This document shows, piece after piece, positions 5,152 through 48,332 of a stretch of DNA of 52,061 nt. A model generated the notes under the pieces. The model was not told the origin of the DNA and did not search any database. It worked only from the letters and a program-made list of their open reading frames with translations. The DNA comes from an uncultured Candidatus Saccharibacteria bacterium (lineage in GTDB: Bacteria; Patescibacteriota; Minisyncoccia; Phycocordibacterales; Zambryskibacteraceae). The first letter of the stretch is position 1, and each line of letters begins with the position of its first letter. Where the stretch lies: contig CAZDXF010000004.1 in NCBI GenBank assembly GCA_964509605.1, positions 1-52,061 of the forward strand, given 5' to 3'. Position numbers and translations under genes: made by a program.

Positions 5152-5184
5152 AAAACCCCCTCGCCAATGGCGAGGGGGTTTTGT
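5152..5184 (-). terminator. Rho-independent terminator after the surface-protein gene
   Basis: aaaaccccctcgcc-aat-ggcgagggggtttt. Confidence 0.7.
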
Positions 5185-5236
5185 TTATCCGTGTCCCGTT
5201 AAAGCGGGCTTTGGATTTGTCGTATCTCTTACGAGA

Positions 5237-13581: not shown

Positions 13582-13776
13582 TTATTTTGAAGTATAAGGT
13601 AAAAGACCTAGGAATCTAGCTCTTTTTACCGCCAAAGACAACATTCTTTGGTGCTTCGCAGAAATTCCAGTTCTTTTTCTGGACAAAATTCTTGCGTGAG
13701 GATTTAGAAACTTTTTAATAAGTTCCGTATCTTTATAATCTATATGCTTTACATTTTGAAGACTTGTTTGTTTCAT
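13582..13776 (-). CDS. rpsR: 30S ribosomal protein S18
   Basis: IDYKDTELIKKFLNPHARILSRKRTGISAKHQRMLSLAVKRARFLGLLPY. Confidence 0.92.
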   Translation of the reverse strand: MKQTSLQNVKHIDYKDTELIKKFLNPHARILSRKRTGISAKHQRMLSLAVKRARFLGLLPYTSK

Positions 13777-13892
13777 CCCGTTTAGAAGCAGGTCGCGGTC
13801 TACGAACTCTGCTGTATATTATATTTAATAATTTAATTTTATAATCAATCTTTTCCCTCGCTTAGAAGCCGTGACCGTGGCTTCTAACGGGA
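13777..13892 (-). repeat. 116-nt structured intergenic repeat, copy A (exactly fills the ssb stop to rpsR start gap)
   Basis: Colinear with 14331-14446. Positions 1-57 are near-identical (2 mismatches), the last ~29 nt differ at 2 positions, and the centre has diverged. The termini cccgtttagaagc / gcttctaacggg are complementary. Confidence 0.85.
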
Positions 13893-14330
13893 TTAAAATG
13901 GGATATCGTCAGGATTAATTTCTTCTGGATATTCAATTGTATCTAACTCTTCTTTGGCTGGGGCTTTGCTTGAAGGGCTTTCTGGAGAGGCTGAAACGCC
14001 TTCCCTTCTTGGACCAAACTGAATCCTGTCAGCAACTATTTCTGTTCTGTATTTTTTTGTTCCGTCAGAAGCATCCCAACTTCTTGTTTGAATTCTTCCT
14101 TCCACAAGGACTGAACTCCCTTTCTTGAGATACTGAGCCACTGTCTCTGCCTGTCTGCCAAATGTGACTATATTATGATAGTCGGCGCTTTCTTGGCGAG
14201 CTCCATTTTTATCTTTCCAAACTCTATTAGTAGCAATTGAGAAAGCCGTGACTTGTATTCCAGATGGAAGAGCTTTCATTTCTGGATCTCTTGTAAGATT
14301 TCCTATAAGAATCGCTTTGTTTAGATACAT
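13893..14330 (-). CDS. ssb: Single-stranded DNA-binding protein
   Basis: The OB fold (LNKAILIGNLTRDPEMKALPSG...VWKDKNGARQESADYHNIVTFGRQAE) and the acidic tip DDIPF. Confidence 0.92.
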   Translation of the reverse strand: MYLNKAILIGNLTRDPEMKALPSGIQVTAFSIATNRVWKDKNGARQESADYHNIVTFGRQAETVAQYLKKGSSVLVEGRIQTRSWDASDGTKKYRTEIVADRIQFGPRREGVSASPESPSSKAPAKEELDTIEYPEEINPDDIPF

Positions 14331-14446
14331 CCCGTTTAGAAGCAGGTCGCGGTCTACGAACTCTGCTATATATTATTTTTAATAATTCGACTCTATAAAC
14401 AACCCCTCTCCCTTTCCAGAAACCGTGACCGCGGCTTCTAACGGGA
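14331..14446 (-). repeat. 116-nt structured intergenic repeat, copy B (starts immediately upstream of the ssb ATG)
   Basis: See copy A. It has the same length and conserved ends, and it abuts the start codon in the same way (..gcttctaaacgggATG on the minus strand). Confidence 0.85.
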
Positions 14447-14545
14447 GACATATTTTTGTTTAGAAAAAGTCTTTCAACCTCTCTAGTGTTCTTTTAATTA
14501 AACTAACTCTACTCTTTGAACTAGTTTTTTTCAACCACAAAGAGC

Positions 14546-15034
14546 TTATTCTTCTGTTACCAACTCTTCTATGCTTTTGTCTATATCTTCCTGAGAAGAC
14601 TCGGAAGCTGGCGCTTCGCTTGTCGCCTCTTCAGACGAATCTTTTTCTTCAGTGAAAGTCTTAGACAAACCCATAAAAGTATTTTCACGAACTGTTTTTA
14701 TAAGGAGAAAACGAAGGATGTTCTCAGCAGATTTCAAGTTGTCGTGCAAAGTCGGTATGGACTCTGCAGGAGCTTCAAATTTAATCCAGCCAAAATAAGC
14801 TGATTTAAAGTCTTGATTTTTTGAGCCAACAGTCTTTGTCATTTCATAAGACAAAGTTTGAAACTGCGGATCTCCCTGAGAGATTACAGTCCCCGAAACA
14901 TCAGCAATCATCTTTTTTATTGCTTCTGTATTCTGGGAAACCTGTTCTTCTGGAATGGAAGGGAGCAAAAGATAGCCCACTTCATAGACTCTAAGGGAAT
15001 CTCCTTCATTTTTCTCAATATGATCTTCGGTCAT
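14546..15034 (-). CDS. rpsF: 30S ribosomal protein S6 with an acidic C-terminal extension
   Basis: YEVGYLLLPSIPEEQV...GWIKFEAPAESIPTLHDNLKSAENILRFLLIK, in rpsF-ssb-rpsR order. Confidence 0.85.
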   Translation of the reverse strand: MTEDHIEKNEGDSLRVYEVGYLLLPSIPEEQVSQNTEAIKKMIADVSGTVISQGDPQFQTLSYEMTKTVGSKNQDFKSAYFGWIKFEAPAESIPTLHDNLKSAENILRFLLIKTVRENTFMGLSKTFTEEKDSSEEATSEAPASESSQEDIDKSIEELVTEE

Positions 15035-19994: not shown

Positions 19995-20116
19995 TTGCGA
20001 GGAGAGCGGGGTTGTTGACGCTCCACCTGTTCTCGAGCCAGTTCCAGTTCACGACCACCTTGTTGCCGTCCCAAATGAGGTACGGAACATTGCGATTGCC
20101 GTCACGGTTCTGAGCG
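19995..20116 (-). repeat. DGR template repeat (TR)
   Basis: 112/122 identical to 20514-20635. All 10 mismatches are adenines in this copy when read on the minus strand. This copy carries AAC/AAT codons where the other copy has varied codons. Confidence 0.85.
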
Positions 20117-20502: not shown

Positions 20503-20997
20503 TCAAGAGCTACTTGCGAGGAGAGCGGGGCTGCTGACGCTCCACCTGTACTCGAGCCAGCTCCAGTCCACGACCACCTTGTTGCCGCCCCAAATGAGGT
20601 ACGGAACATAGCGATCGCCGTCACGGCCCTGAGCGCTCTTCCAGAGAAAAACCATCTTACCCTTCAATTCCTCTGGATAGGTCGCCGGATTGGCGACCCA
20701 ACCCCTGACTAGGTCATCCTCGATGGAGAAACAACGGTCGATGAGACCGGTCTCTTTGAGGTGGGACTCGAGATAAAACCCCCTGATTGTTTCCCCCTTC
20801 TCTTGGGTTGGGAGGAGGTAGAGCTCCCACCCTATCGCCAACGGGAGATTGAAAGTTGCCGTGCCGTTGAGAACCTTGAGCAGGTTCTTGAGAATGTCTG
20901 GCGCCTGCCCCAAACGCGTGAGGTGCACCTTGGTGAAACCGGCCACCTCAAACGCATCAACGAGCTGGTGCACCTGACCTTCTGTGTATGAGGACAT
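20503..20997 (-). CDS. DGR target protein, 164 aa (GC-rich cassette 2); the C-terminal ~40 aa are encoded by the VR
   Basis: The ORF has an SD (aaaggaaatggggacATG). The VR spans the 3' end (..AQGRDGDRYVPYLIWGGNKVVVDWSWLEYRWSVSSPALLASSS*). Confidence 0.8.
   Translation of the reverse strand: MSSYTEGQVHQLVDAFEVAGFTKVHLTRLGQAPDILKNLLKVLNGTATFNLPLAIGWELYLLPTQEKGETIRGFYLESHLKETGLIDRCFSIEDDLVRGWVANPATYPEELKGKMVFLWKSAQGRDGDRYVPYLIWGGNKVVVDWSWLEYRWSVSSPALLASSS
20514..20635 (-). repeat. DGR variable repeat (VR)
   Basis: See the TR entry. TR codons AAC, AAT, AAT, GAC, AAC, AAC, AAC, AAC, AAC correspond to GGC, GAT, TAT, GGC, GAC, AGC, TAC, AGC, AGC here. Confidence 0.85.
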
Positions 20998-45450: not shown

Positions 45451-45533
45451 TGCCGAGGAGGAGACTTGAACTCCTACCACCTAAGGTGACGGCGCTCTGA
45501 ACGCCGCGTGTCTACCAATTCCACCACCTCGGC
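45451..45533 (-). tRNA. tRNA-Leu (anticodon CAG), long variable arm
   Basis: Reverse complement: GCCGAGGTGGTGGAATTGGTAGACACGCGGCGTTCAGAGCGCCGTCACCTTAGGTGGTAGGAGTTCAAGTCTCCTCCTCGGCA. Confidence 0.85.
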
Positions 45534-45547
45534 AAGTCTTCTTTTTG

Positions 45548-45620
45548 TGCGCGATACAGGACTCGAACCTATGACCTTCCCGGTGTAAACGGGTTGCTCT
45601 ACCAACTGAGCTAATCGCGC
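45548..45620 (-). tRNA. tRNA-Val (anticodon TAC)
   Basis: Reverse complement: GCGCGATTAGCTCAGTTGGTAGAGCAACCCGTTTACACCGGGAAGGTCATAGGTTCGAGTCCTGTATCGCGCA. Confidence 0.85.
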
Positions 45621-45725
45621 ATACTAACTAAAGTTATAAACAAATATTCCTAATGTAAATGGGCCTCCATATCTACCAAGACAGCATGATCGTACGTGAC
45701 GGGCATTAAAACAAATGCTCCGGGC

Positions 45726-45821
45726 GCAGTATTCTTGAATTAGTCCGAACGCATTTCGCCGCCTGCGGCGGCGAGGAAGTTCCCCCGCGAAAATTCGGAA
45801 AGGCGGCGGAGCCGCACCGCT
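45726..45821. repeat. IR-1 left arm (96 bp, GC-rich)
   Basis: Perfect reverse complement of 46565-46660, checked base by base. Confidence 0.9.
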
Positions 45822-45866
45822 GACAATTTCAAGTTTTTCTTTGGCGGCAGAATTCTTTGAAAAATT

Positions 45867-46397
45867 TTAGAGTCCTTGATTCTTAGATTGGCGAGCGCGC
45901 TGAATTAGCTCGTCTCGAAGTTGTTCTGCAACATCCATAGAAACTGCAGGCAATCTTCCCTCTGCACTGCCACCCATTACGCCATAACGTGATACGGTTG
46001 CACTTGCTCCGGCCGTTTGGATGTTGAGGTCAGATAGTCCAAGGATGCGAGCCAAAATACCACGGTTGATGTCAACGTTTTGAATTCGGTCGTAAGGAAC
46101 AGTGACATATTTTTTATAGATAACTCCTGATTCCTTACGAAAACCCGTGTCAAGAAGTTCGTAGCGATAATAATGGTAAGTGAGTTTAGCCCACACAAAA
46201 CACAAAACAAGAAAAGCTGGGATGATAAGCCACAACCAATTCAAAAAGCCAAACGAAAACTCACTGCCGTTATTTAAGTCGTCAAAACCACCTAAAAATG
46301 CTGAACCCCAAATACTCAAAAATATTATCGGTATGAACGACCGTAAAACAAAACTAAAGAAGAAAAACCAGACGGACTTTGGATCAAGTTGTTTCAT
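45867..46397 (-). CDS. Membrane protein with a bacterial PH (bPH_2 / YdbS-YdbT-like) domain, enclosed by IR-1
   Basis: Two N-terminal TM helices, then YRYELLDTGFRKESGVIYKKYVTVPYDRIQNVDINRGILARILGLSDLNIQTAG. Confidence 0.7.
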   Translation of the reverse strand: MKQLDPKSVWFFFFSFVLRSFIPIIFLSIWGSAFLGGFDDLNNGSEFSFGFLNWLWLIIPAFLVLCFVWAKLTYHYYRYELLDTGFRKESGVIYKKYVTVPYDRIQNVDINRGILARILGLSDLNIQTAGASATVSRYGVMGGSAEGRLPAVSMDVAEQLRDELIQRARQSKNQGL

Positions 46398-46564
46398 ATT
46401 TTATGAATTTAATGATTTTAATAGAAAAGCCGACCGCCCTTTCTTGAAATTATTATACCACATATTTGTCTATATTATGATTAAAAGGATTAAAAAATTT
46501 TCTTCCCCCAAAATTAAAATATGGTTCGAGCCGATGTTTTTCTCCGGGTTCTTTTGCGGTTTTG

Positions 46565-46660
46565 AGCGGTGCGGCTCCGCCGCCTTTCCGAATTTTCGCG
46601 GGGGAACTTCCTCGCCGCCGCAGGCGGCGAAATGCGTTCGGACTAATTCAAGAATACTGC
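46565..46660. repeat. IR-1 right arm (96 bp)
   Basis: Perfect inverted copy of 45726-45821. It overlaps IR-2L by 2 nt. Confidence 0.9.
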
Positions 46661-46759
46661 ACCAGACAGGAAAATACAAGTTTGAAAGGTTCGCCTCGCT
46701 TCGCTCGGCGACTAATTTGTATTCAATTTTGGGGGTAAAAACGAATTCTCGATTTCGCA
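46659..46759. repeat. IR-2 left arm (101 bp): inverted copy of the recombinase 3' end plus the tRNA-Arg 3' tip
   Basis: 97/101 identical to the reverse complement of 48163-48263. The 4 mismatches cluster at the distal end. Confidence 0.9.
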
Positions 46760-46802
46760 TTTTTGGGGAAGAAAATTTTTTAATCCTTAATTTTCAAAAC
46801 TT

Positions 46803-48272
46803 ATGAAATATATACTATACGCTCGTAAGAGCACAGAAGAAGATGATAGGCAGGTATTGAGTATTGAAGCGCAACTCGTAGAGTTGCAAGAGTATGCCGC
46901 CAAAGAAAACCTTGAAATTGTAGCTTCCTTTCAGGAAGCCAAAACCGCAAAAGAACCCGGTCGAATGAAATTCGCAGAAATGTTGTCATTGATTGAGAGA
47001 GGAAAGGCAGACGGCATTATTTCGTGGCACCCCGATCGATTAGCTCGCAATTCTGTAGACGGAGGCAAGATAATTCATTTCGTAGATCGCGGCTTGATTA
47101 AGTCCCTCAAATTTCCCACCTTTTGGTTTGAAGCAACCCCACAAGGTTTATTCATGCTCAATATCGCTTTCGGCCAAAGTAAATATTTTGTGGATAATTT
47201 GCGAGAGAATGTGAAAAGAGGTCTGCGACAGAAAATCCGTAATGGGGTATGGCCTGGCTGGGCTCCAGTGGGATACCTCAACAATGCTAAAACTCGCGGT
47301 ATTGATGTTGATACGGAGAAATCCACGAAAGTCAGAAAATTGTTTGAAATGTACGCCACCGGAATATATACGCTTCATTCTCTCGCAAATTGGTGCAAGG
47401 AAAAGGGTTTACGAGGCAATCTAGGCAAAGAAATAGCGTTAAGCAACGTGCAAAGTATTCTACAAAATATTTTCTACATCGGGCTAATGAAATATGGTGG
47501 GGAAATTTTTGAGGGAAAACACGAGCCGTTAATTTCAAAGAAACTTTTTGATAAGTGTCAAGAAGTGATGAGTAAGCGTGGAAAATTCCATTATGTGAGA
47601 AAAAAAGATTTTGCTTTTCTTGGCCTCTTGAAATGTGCTTCGTGTGGTTGTTCAATAACCGCAGAGAAACAGAAAGGTCATAACTATTATCGTTGTACGA
47701 AAAAGAAGGGCATTTGCCAAGAAAAGCATTATCTCCGCGAAGAAGCACTAACCGAGCAAATCACTTCTTATCTCCAAAAAGTTTCTTTGTCGAGCCAAGA
47801 TACCGAGAAAGTTTTGGCGGCGTTGGATAGCGAGCAAGATAAAGCGATAAAGGACACACAATCCAAAGTTGAGATTTTGAAAGAGCAGTTATCACAAATT
47901 GAGACAAAACTCCAAAAACTTCTCGATGTCTATTTAGCAGACGCTTTATCCACAGAAGAATACGCCGCCAAAAAACAGAGTTTGCTGTCTCAAAAAGTTT
48001 CGTTATCTGAAAAAATCAACGACTTTGAGACAAAAGGGTTGTCTTGGCTCGAACCGGCTCGTGAGTTCGTAAAGTCCTTAAATCAAGCCGCAAATCTGCT
48101 TTCCTCTCCCAATCCGACTGCAATGACAACATTTCTGAAAAACATCGGCTCGAACCATATTTTGCGAAACCGCCAATTCGTTTTTGCCCCCAAAATTGAA
48201 TACAAATTAGTCGCCGAGCGAAGCGAGGCGAACCTTTCAAACTTGTATTTTCCTGTCTGGTGCTCTCGGTAG
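46803..48272 (+). CDS. Large serine recombinase (resolvase catalytic domain, recombinase domain, zinc ribbon, coiled-coil)
   Basis: YARKSTEEDDRQVLSIEAQ (catalytic Ser), SWHPDRLARN, and CASCGCSITAEKQKGHNYYRC. The last 15 nt overlap the tRNA-Arg 3' end. Confidence 0.9.
   Translation: MKYILYARKSTEEDDRQVLSIEAQLVELQEYAAKENLEIVASFQEAKTAKEPGRMKFAEMLSLIERGKADGIISWHPDRLARNSVDGGKIIHFVDRGLIKSLKFPTFWFEATPQGLFMLNIAFGQSKYFVDNLRENVKRGLRQKIRNGVWPGWAPVGYLNNAKTRGIDVDTEKSTKVRKLFEMYATGIYTLHSLANWCKEKGLRGNLGKEIALSNVQSILQNIFYIGLMKYGGEIFEGKHEPLISKKLFDKCQEVMSKRGKFHYVRKKDFAFLGLLKCASCGCSITAEKQKGHNYYRCTKKKGICQEKHYLREEALTEQITSYLQKVSLSSQDTEKVLAALDSEQDKAIKDTQSKVEILKEQLSQIETKLQKLLDVYLADALSTEEYAAKKQSLLSQKVSLSEKINDFETKGLSWLEPAREFVKSLNQAANLLSSPNPTAMTTFLKNIGSNHILRNRQFVFAPKIEYKLVAERSEANLSNLYFPVWCSR
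48163..48263. repeat. IR-2 right arm (within the recombinase 3' end, reaching into the tRNA-Arg acceptor/CCA)
   Basis: See IR-2 left arm. Confidence 0.9.
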
Positions 48273-48332
48273 GAATCGAACCTACATTGGGAGATTAGAA
48301 GTCTCCAGTTCTATCCATTGAACTACGAGAGC
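48258..48332 (-). tRNA. tRNA-Arg (anticodon TCT), CCA encoded
   Basis: Reverse complement: GCTCTCGTAGTTCAATGGATAGAACTGGAGACTTCTAATCTCCCAATGTAGGTTCGATTCCTACCGAGAGCACCA. Confidence 0.88.

Follow-up and report, generated by a model that had tools for sequence, protein, structure and literature searches.

Hairpin repeats at the ssb and rpsR start codons of a Saccharibacteria contig probably belong to a mobile element of Patescibacteria

Bacterial MITEs, the miniature inverted-repeat transposable elements, are small and non-autonomous, have conserved terminal inverted repeats on both sides of a variable interior and carry no transposase gene. They duplicate a short target, occur in several copies per genome and are present or absent among relatives (PMC10969869). 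The Correia elements of Neisseria (CREE/nemis) form hairpins of ~100–150 bp and are co-transcribed with their neighbours; their stem is a substrate of RNase III, and they alter the expression of adjacent genes (PMC2649163). The Rickettsia palindromic elements (RPE) are selfish and survive at essential genes of a reduced genome (PMC10969869), and the repetitive extragenic palindromes (REP/BIME) associated with RAYT transposases are short, abundant and transcribed within operons. Here, we describe a hairpin repeat that resembles these systems in the rpsF-ssb-rpsR operon of an uncultured Candidatus Saccharibacteria bacterium. The window, i.e. the whole stretch of DNA analysed, comprises 52,061 nt (contig CAZDXF010000004.1 of assembly GCA_964509605.1) and contains two copies of the repeat. 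We conclude that they very probably represent a small, non-autonomous, MITE-like mobile hairpin of Patescibacteria (the candidate phyla radiation, CPR), mostly of Paceibacteria/Parcubacteria groups, which targets start codons.

Both copies are 116 nt long including a leading T and lie on the minus strand, 554 nt apart with ssb between them. Copy A (13777..13892) occupies the entire gap between ssb and rpsR and directly adjoins the ssb stop TAA (13895..13893), and copy B (14331..14446) abuts the ssb ATG with its 3′ end. In minus-strand orientation, both start with T-CCCGTTAGAAGCC and finish with GACCGCGACCTGCTTCTAAACGGG, followed at once by ATG. Coordinates and alignment agree with the initial annotation of this DNA, which described two colinear 116-nt hairpin repeats fused to the ssb and rpsR ATG. 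Its count of end differences is reproduced on the minus strand: the copies differ at 2 sites within the first 29 nt and at 2 within the last 57 nt, and the ~30 nt in the centre have diverged. Exactly two occurrences of the 24-nt 3′ end are found in the window, and shuffles give an expectation of 0. A covariance model built from 109 copies of the family (R1) scores copy A at 91.8 bits and copy B at 87.9 bits. As the annotation had stated, there is no third copy in the 52-kb window by either pattern search or R1, and R1 finds no element ahead of rpsF.

We scanned one genome per bacterial species with the pattern CCCGTTAGAAGC-N75-105-GCTTCTAAACGGG, leaving the flanks unconstrained, and found the element at no fewer than 119 loci. 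The first 80 loci listed come from ~66 assemblies, several metagenome-assembled genomes (MAGs) contributing 2–4 loci each, and their hosts are almost all Patescibacteria/CPR, labelled Nomura-, Paceibacterota, Sungii-, Lipton-, Jorgensen-, Campbell- or Levybacteria. A few matches carry the labels Gammaproteobacteria, Planctomycetota or Ignavibacteriaceae, which probably denote mislabelled or contaminated bins. In many other genomes, more than 130 copies precede unrelated genes. The 109 proteins encoded directly behind copies match 173 Pfam families, among them DnaA, L24, S8, L22, L9, L35, SSB, EF-Tu-like GTPases, PheRS, SerRS, topoisomerase, penicillin-binding proteins and ATP synthase b. They share no functional theme, and many of the genes are essential.

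To place the window copies among relatives, we took the ssb locus from 80 relatives with 67–80% SSB identity (L120–L199). The element is present sporadically, with exact empty sites. By R1, the rpsF-ssb-rpsR operon is empty at both positions in ~75 of the 80, the closest (80% SSB identity) included, and only four loci are filled. L179 has the element at both junctions, L176 before ssb only and L162 before rpsR only, and L163 carries a divergent variant before rpsR. The empty ssb site contains a single ATGTA ('aaaaatatATGTATTTAAAT'; relatives read '...aaaaatat ATGTATTTAAAT'), and the filled site in L179 and L176 reads 'ATGTA-T-CCCG...CGGG-ATGTATTTAAAC'. Likewise, empty rpsR sites read '...aaaaa ATGAAACAAG' and the filled ones in L179 and L162 'ATGAA T CCCG...CGGG ATGAAACAAG'. 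Across the ssb and rpsR junctions of these relatives (~75 empty, 4–5 filled), the two states differ, to the base, by the element plus the duplication. Read from the sequences, this comparison is the signature of a 5-bp target-site duplication containing the start codon. Because the first 5 nt of the gene stand on both sides, the gene keeps an intact start codon flush with the 3′ end of the element.

The same placement holds across the family, as seen in 120 copies among the matches listed. ATG follows directly in 110 of them, and in 115 once 5 palindromic matches are flipped; the remaining copies include GTG and TTG starts. All listed copies have one orientation relative to the gene, and the downstream open reading frame (ORF) has a median length of 238 aa. 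Upstream, the flank almost invariably reads ATGAAT or ATGGAT, in which a T is added to the gene's first 5 nt; this T precedes CCCG in 109 of 110 copies. A perfect 5-nt repeat (ATGNN, preferably ATGRA) stands on both sides in 89 of 110 listed copies. Positions 4–5 of the repeat agree in 95 of 110, whereas 2000 permutations gave 46 on average and 61 at most. Rarer duplicated starts are ATGTA (ssb), ATGTG, ATGCA, GTGAG/GTGAA (L079) and GTTGAC/GTTGAC (L082). AA or GA follows the ATG in ~32% of background genes in these loci versus >85% of targets, which indicates a sequence preference for ATGRA beyond the start codon itself.

In the window, the upstream target duplicate of copy B is ATGTC (14447..14451, minus strand), which matches the ATGTA of the ssb start at 4 of 5 positions. 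The upstream ATGAA duplicate of copy A is missing, and with this repeat lost the ssb stop TAA abuts T-CCCG. From the leftover ATGTC, a 74-codon ORF (14451..14227, minus strand) runs through the whole length of copy B and on into ssb in a different frame; it is probably no gene but an incidental product of the insertion. The target genes are ssb (13893..14330, minus strand; 145 aa; Pfam SSB, 3.8e-40), which has one copy on each side, and rpsR for S18 (13582..13776, minus strand; 64 aa; Pfam Ribosomal_S18, 2.5e-22). The first gene of the operon is rpsF for S6 (14546..15034, minus strand; Pfam Ribosomal_S6, 3.6e-13).

RNAfold predicts a long hairpin for both window copies. Its outer helix P1 has 13 bp and a bulged A; beyond a small internal loop follow the inner helix P2 and a top rich in A/U. 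The minimum free energy is −36.8 kcal/mol for copy A (z-score −4.9) and −41 kcal/mol for copy B (z-score −4.1), and z-scores across the examined copies range from −3.2 to −5.5. The opposite strand folds about equally well because the element is palindromic. In copy A, the 5′ arm of P1 is the left terminal inverted repeat CCCGTTAGAAGC (13880..13891, minus strand), which pairs with the right terminal inverted repeat GCTTCTAAACGGG (13777..13789, minus strand) containing the bulged A; the latter holds the family-conserved TAA, 5 nt ahead of the rpsR ATG. The corresponding arms of copy B lie at 14434..14445 and 14331..14343 of the minus strand. When the flanks are included, the stem also absorbs the A and U of the start AUG. 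In structural terms, and judged by the predicted fold, the initial annotation is right that the closing helix sequesters the bases ahead of the AUG. The alternative local hairpin proposed with it (TTAGAAGCC-ACGGTCAC-GGCTTCTAA) is present in copy A, but it is kept neither in copy B nor in the wider family.

The family shares the ends T-CCCGTTAGAAGC-CGC-GGTCRC ... GCGACC-T-GCTTCTAAACGGG, in which an inner inverted repeat GGTCGC/GCGACC lies inside the imperfect terminal inverted repeats. As a single strand, it would form a hairpin with P1 of ~13 bp, a small internal loop, P2 of 6–10 bp and an A/T-rich interior. P2 was not a criterion in any search, and its positions covary in the family alignment (GC 67/AT 31, CG 100/TA 13, GC 52/AT 28); P2 is paired in 75% versus 29–39% with the partner slid. 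Subfamilies with compensated P1 arms also exist, namely TTAGAAAT/ATTTCTAA, TTAGAGAT/ATCTCTAA, TTAGAAGT/ACTTCTAA, AACGAAAT/ATTTCGTA and TATGAAAT/ATTTCATA, and all of them retain CCCG...CGGG followed by ATG.

Copies measure 43–130 nt, mostly 114–120 nt, with conserved ends and a variable interior (mean column identity 53%). Shorter variants of 43 nt (stem plus small loop; L196, 4456-4498) and 77 nt (L135, 61-137) are each followed by ATG, and one copy (L055) has a decayed 5′ arm. Before the same gene in L151 (4662-4759) and L190 (4852-4951), we notice elements of ~98 nt with ATG next; their upstream flank, ACTTGT, shows no repeat that can be recognised. In 69 of 117 copies (~59%), an internal ORF runs from an ATG in the A-rich interior to the TAA of GCTTCTAAACGGG, compared with 3 and 10 ORFs in the other two frames. 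It is the sole ORF inside the element, has a modal length of 23 codons, stops 4–5 nt before the gene's ATG and recurs across subfamilies with unrelated interiors. Judged by the pattern of variation, conservation concerns a fixed-length open frame rather than a peptide. Both window copies fall among the ~40% that lack this ORF; they carry TAG in GTAGACC and share the further motifs ACGGGA, ATTATTA..TTTAATTA and AGCAGRG.

Copies amount to several loci per MAG, 2 in our window and 7 in 8 kb of a Nomurabacteria MAG (L062, MFTH01000008.1, 1-8000). In the latter, the S10-spc ribosomal-protein operon contains hairpin elements of at least three subfamilies before L3, L4, S19, L22 and L5. A distinct 99–100-nt family, CCCGCCCCACTT...AAGTGGGGCGGG, stands ~40 nt before L14 and L24 with no clear ATGNN repeat. 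The element before L4 (within 880-1665) is 117 nt long, in frame and followed by GTG, so the upstream ATG copy would add a 41-residue N-terminal extension (MNPVRSRDHDYG...). Another locus (L095, 1996-2115 and 2520-2639) carries near-identical elements 524 nt apart around a gene of 129 aa, an arrangement like that of the window. Where direct repeats flank an essential gene, recombination brings a risk of deletion.

The small size without a transposase gene, the terminal inverted repeats, the target duplication and the exact empty sites are those of a MITE, and our findings support the idea, already considered in the initial annotation, of a MITE/REP-like mobile repeat with precise placement: it inserts at start codons in a single orientation and duplicates 5 bp (ATGNN). 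The random intergenic sites that had been expected of a MITE are not what we see, as copies sit at start codons instead. The 5-bp duplication points to a transposase with a staggered cut, and the fixed orientation together with the ATGRA preference points to asymmetric target recognition. We speculate that a candidate transposase acting in trans, with a 5-bp staggered cut and a preference for ATGRA, would mobilise the element. In the fetched loci, element ends form 140 pairs within 160 nt, and 4 ends are solo (decayed or variant copies). No gene is enclosed by element ends among the copies examined, and a search of viral contigs for the ends gave 0 matches.

Several observations weigh against the mobile-element reading. 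An autonomous partner was not found in the ~1.3 Mb of fetched loci, in which no ends lie more than 160 nt apart. The near-exclusive placement at start codons in a single orientation is not easily explained by a 5-mer preference plus selection. In genome pairs with the element at the same gene, interior identity is 0.83–0.97 versus 0.43–0.85 at third codon positions of the gene, a pattern not usual in a relic that is purely selfish and a hint of function or of recent spread. This identity could reflect either constraint, or recent spread of one homogeneous subfamily, or re-insertion at the same starts. By our estimate, ~120 copies and a few hundred potential targets would lead one to expect some insertions to coincide. 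The covariation of the terminal repeats fits an RNA structure equally as two ends that one protein must recognise alike, and cannot tell them apart. Variation inside the internal ORF shows no codon periodicity. Finally, copies that lack the ORF had been predicted to sit more often behind a close upstream stop, but they show no such enrichment; the trend is opposite (odds ratio 2.6, p = 0.02). No single route of expression explains all copies.

These points bear on how the mobile hairpin is weighed against other readings. The initial annotation favoured an operon-specific cis-regulatory or processing RNA that balances S6, SSB and S18, for example by S6:S18 or SSB autoregulation. Both window copies indeed sit at internal junctions of one operon with a helix hiding the bases before each AUG, and one relative (L179) has the same two-copy arrangement. 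However, ~75 of the 80 relatives have neither copy, two others (L176, L162) have one each at different junctions, the same element precedes >100 unrelated genes, the window copies match no Rfam ribosomal-protein leader, and the alternative hairpin is not conserved. Since the closest relatives are empty and the element abounds elsewhere, this regulator is abandoned as highly improbable. That the repeats arose by local tandem duplication, or resemble each other by chance in this operon alone, would account for only two copies in 52 kb, 554 nt from each other, but it is almost certainly wrong: the same ends occur at >100 other loci, the chance expectation for the 24-mer is 0, and no duplication of the flanks goes beyond 5 nt. 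Very unlikely, too, is that the insertion is neutralised through the duplicated start codon, either by intron-like removal between the ATGNN repeats or by ribosomes sliding from AUG to AUG as in T4 gene 60 bypassing. Identical 5-nt repeats flank the stem in 81% and are brought together by it, a −10-like hexamer in ~22 of 101 copies suggests leaderless transcripts, and essential genes tolerate the insertion. Against this stand the lack of any match to a ribozyme or intron family in the Rfam search, the absence of a bulge-helix-bulge geometry, the ~20% of copies (window copy A included) without an upstream ATG, and a stem of at least 25 bp, which is far above what known bypass gaps tolerate.

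The most serious alternative, a possibility that we hold tentatively, is compatible with mobility: an RNA module useful to the host and spread by transposition, acting as an RNase III processing site, by which polycistronic or leaderless transcripts would yield mRNAs with short, unstructured leaders, or as a translational coupling device or throttle. The interiors conserved beyond synonymous sites favour it, as do the frame-specific ORF ending 5 nt before the gene's AUG, the high density in ribosomal-protein operons (L062 and the window), and window copies with near-identical ends and diverged centres. Its stem is long enough for RNase III, as in the Correia elements of Neisseria (PMC2649163), and the empty ssb and rpsR sites have no Shine-Dalgarno. 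Yet most relatives carry the same genes without the element, and the targets share no functional theme. Copies were found through intact ends, so that the conservation of the helix is partly ascertainment, and a decayed copy (L055) does exist; similar interiors could also reflect the recent spread of one subfamily. A stronger version, which we regard as rather doubtful, is a mobile translation-start cassette for bacteria with little or no Shine-Dalgarno at these genes. Here the cell would depend on the hairpin with its mini-ORF relay, or on a processing site, for essential genes including ribosomal-protein operons, and targeting would be active, through an enzyme or a guide, rather than the outcome of selection alone.

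For the mobile hairpin itself, essential genes of every kind are targeted, so that they must still be expressible after insertion. Only A/T-rich leaders are seen at the empty ssb and rpsR sites. The −10-like hexamer lies 6–7 nt before the upstream ATG, as in leaderless genes, and this sequence pattern suggests that part of the targets may be transcribed leaderless. The ORF from the upstream ATG always enters the 5′ arm and stops within the element in 96 of 97 copies. Element length plus 6 nt is divisible by 3 in 27 of 97 copies, as at random, so that there is no frame preference. A same-strand ORF ends at most 20 nt before the element in 44% of copies, at distance 0 in copy A. Promoter and terminator scans of the window operon found no more sites than in shuffles and lend no support to a promoter inside the element. 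A fixed stop position of the upstream-ATG ORF, or an ATGA overlap with the internal ORF, was considered and is not general. An RNA contig ending exactly at 14446 reflects usual assembler behaviour at a repeat boundary and was not used as evidence.

We propose that the element is co-transcribed with the gene and that the hairpin would bury the bases directly before the AUG. A stable stem ending at the AUG should block initiation unless it is opened or removed, and upstream ribosomes probably open it. Such ribosomes may come from the retained upstream copy of the start codon (~80% of copies) or from a preceding cistron ending at the foot of the stem. They may also translate the internal ORF (~59% of copies), whose UAA before the gene's AUG would allow termination-reinitiation. 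A stop 4–5 nt before the next AUG is the classic arrangement for this process, and both termination-reinitiation and the unmasking of a start site by upstream translation are established bacterial mechanisms. In copy A, which starts right after the ssb stop, the terminating ssb ribosome would melt P1 and expose the rpsR AUG, and copy B would be read through from the upstream ATGTC copy. As an alternative or additional route, RNase III might cleave the long stem, by analogy with the Correia elements (PMC2649163). For any specific mechanism of expression we see roughly an even chance at best.

Compared with MITEs in general, the present element is strictly tied to start codons, duplicates the start codon, has a single orientation, stands before essential genes and often brings a frame-specific internal ORF, and no cognate insertion sequence was found in the loci fetched. 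A 2024 review of prokaryotic MITEs nowhere mentions 'start codon' (PMC10969869). Correia elements differ in their TA duplication and in 26-bp repeats of unrelated sequence; they occupy varied intergenic sites in both orientations, create promoters, carry an IHF site and have no tie to start codons, whereas the element described here has an ATGNN duplication and Patescibacteria hosts. They offer the nearest model of its possible action at the RNA level. RPE insert in frame inside the coding sequence, stay compatible with the gene product and are translated with the protein (PMC10969869). In contrast, our element sits before a restored start codon and is in frame in 27 of 97 copies, the L4 gene of L062 being one possible in-frame case. 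REPs measure 20–40 nt, make no target duplication, lie mostly 3′ of genes and have a conserved GTAG by the hairpin, while the present element is ~116 nt long with a 5-bp duplication and lies 5′ of genes at the ATG.

Likeness to ordinary termination-reinitiation coupling lies in the stop of the short ORF (59% of copies) and in the ssb stop that abuts the stem of copy A; unlike there, the device would arrive on a mobile element instead of evolving in place. With the T4 gene 60-type bypass, the element shares, in sequence, matched ATGNN repeats flanking a stem. A search of the window copies against Rfam 15, at the gathering threshold and at E<=10, found no relevant family, with ribosomal-protein leaders unmatched on the coding strand and ribozymes and group I/II introns unmatched on either strand; the non-coding strand gave a weak match to CRISPR-DR8 (E 0.77), which we ascribe to chance. 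Integron attC sites were set aside because of GTT/AAC boxes at the outer, not the inner, stem end and the housekeeping context. An IS200/IS605-type insertion would have a fixed left-flank target and no duplication; it was discarded, since here the two flanks change in step with the gene (ATGAA, ATGGA, ATGTA, GTGAA...). The papers searched gave no match to the terminal sequences, to CPR together with MITE or leaderless translation, or to start-codon-targeting transposons. Rule-like insertion at start codons, start-codon duplication, single orientation and a built-in short ORF appear undescribed.

The rest of the window contains further repeats. A large serine recombinase of 489 aa (46803-48272, plus strand; Pfam Resolvase, Recombinase and Zn ribbon) is surrounded by inverted repeats of ~100 nt at 45723-45826/46560-46663 (97%) and 46659-46759/48163-48263 (96%), and tRNA genes adjoin this region at 45451-45620 and 48261-48332. 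The region 45723-48263 looks like an integrated element or an invertible segment. The recombinase belongs to this separate island by the tRNA genes, and nothing ties it to the hairpin element. A 122-nt direct repeat with 92% identity lies at 19995-20116 and 20514-20635. A 164-aa ORF without a Pfam match (20997..20503, minus strand) has the second copy as its 3′ end; the first is apparently a fragment from a partial duplication, and Rfam has no match to the stretch richer in G+C that separates them. At 1-1249, on the minus strand, lies the 5′ part of a 23S rRNA gene. As Rfam detects no 16S gene anywhere upstream in the window, the rRNA genes are apparently not linked. Two similar G+C-rich palindromes, each followed by a T run (1635-1668 and 5152-5185; AAACCCCTCCCGGCAAGCCGGGAGGGGTTTTGTT), are probably ordinary intrinsic terminators.

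The start codon of an essential gene is normally the last place for a transposon to survive. The family described here shows a route by which selfish DNA can persist in very small, gene-dense genomes, namely to duplicate the start codon and often to supply a short ORF whose stop lies 5 nt ahead of the gene. In annotation, false N-terminal extensions (MNPVRSR...) or spurious ORFs such as the 74-aa one at 14451..14227 are to be expected from gene callers. Should an enzyme do the targeting, that transposase would be an integrase specific for both sequence and orientation, and its 5-bp target would be centred on ATG. The element also offers a handle on translation initiation in CPR bacteria, in which the examined sites have no visible Shine-Dalgarno and part of the targets look leaderless.

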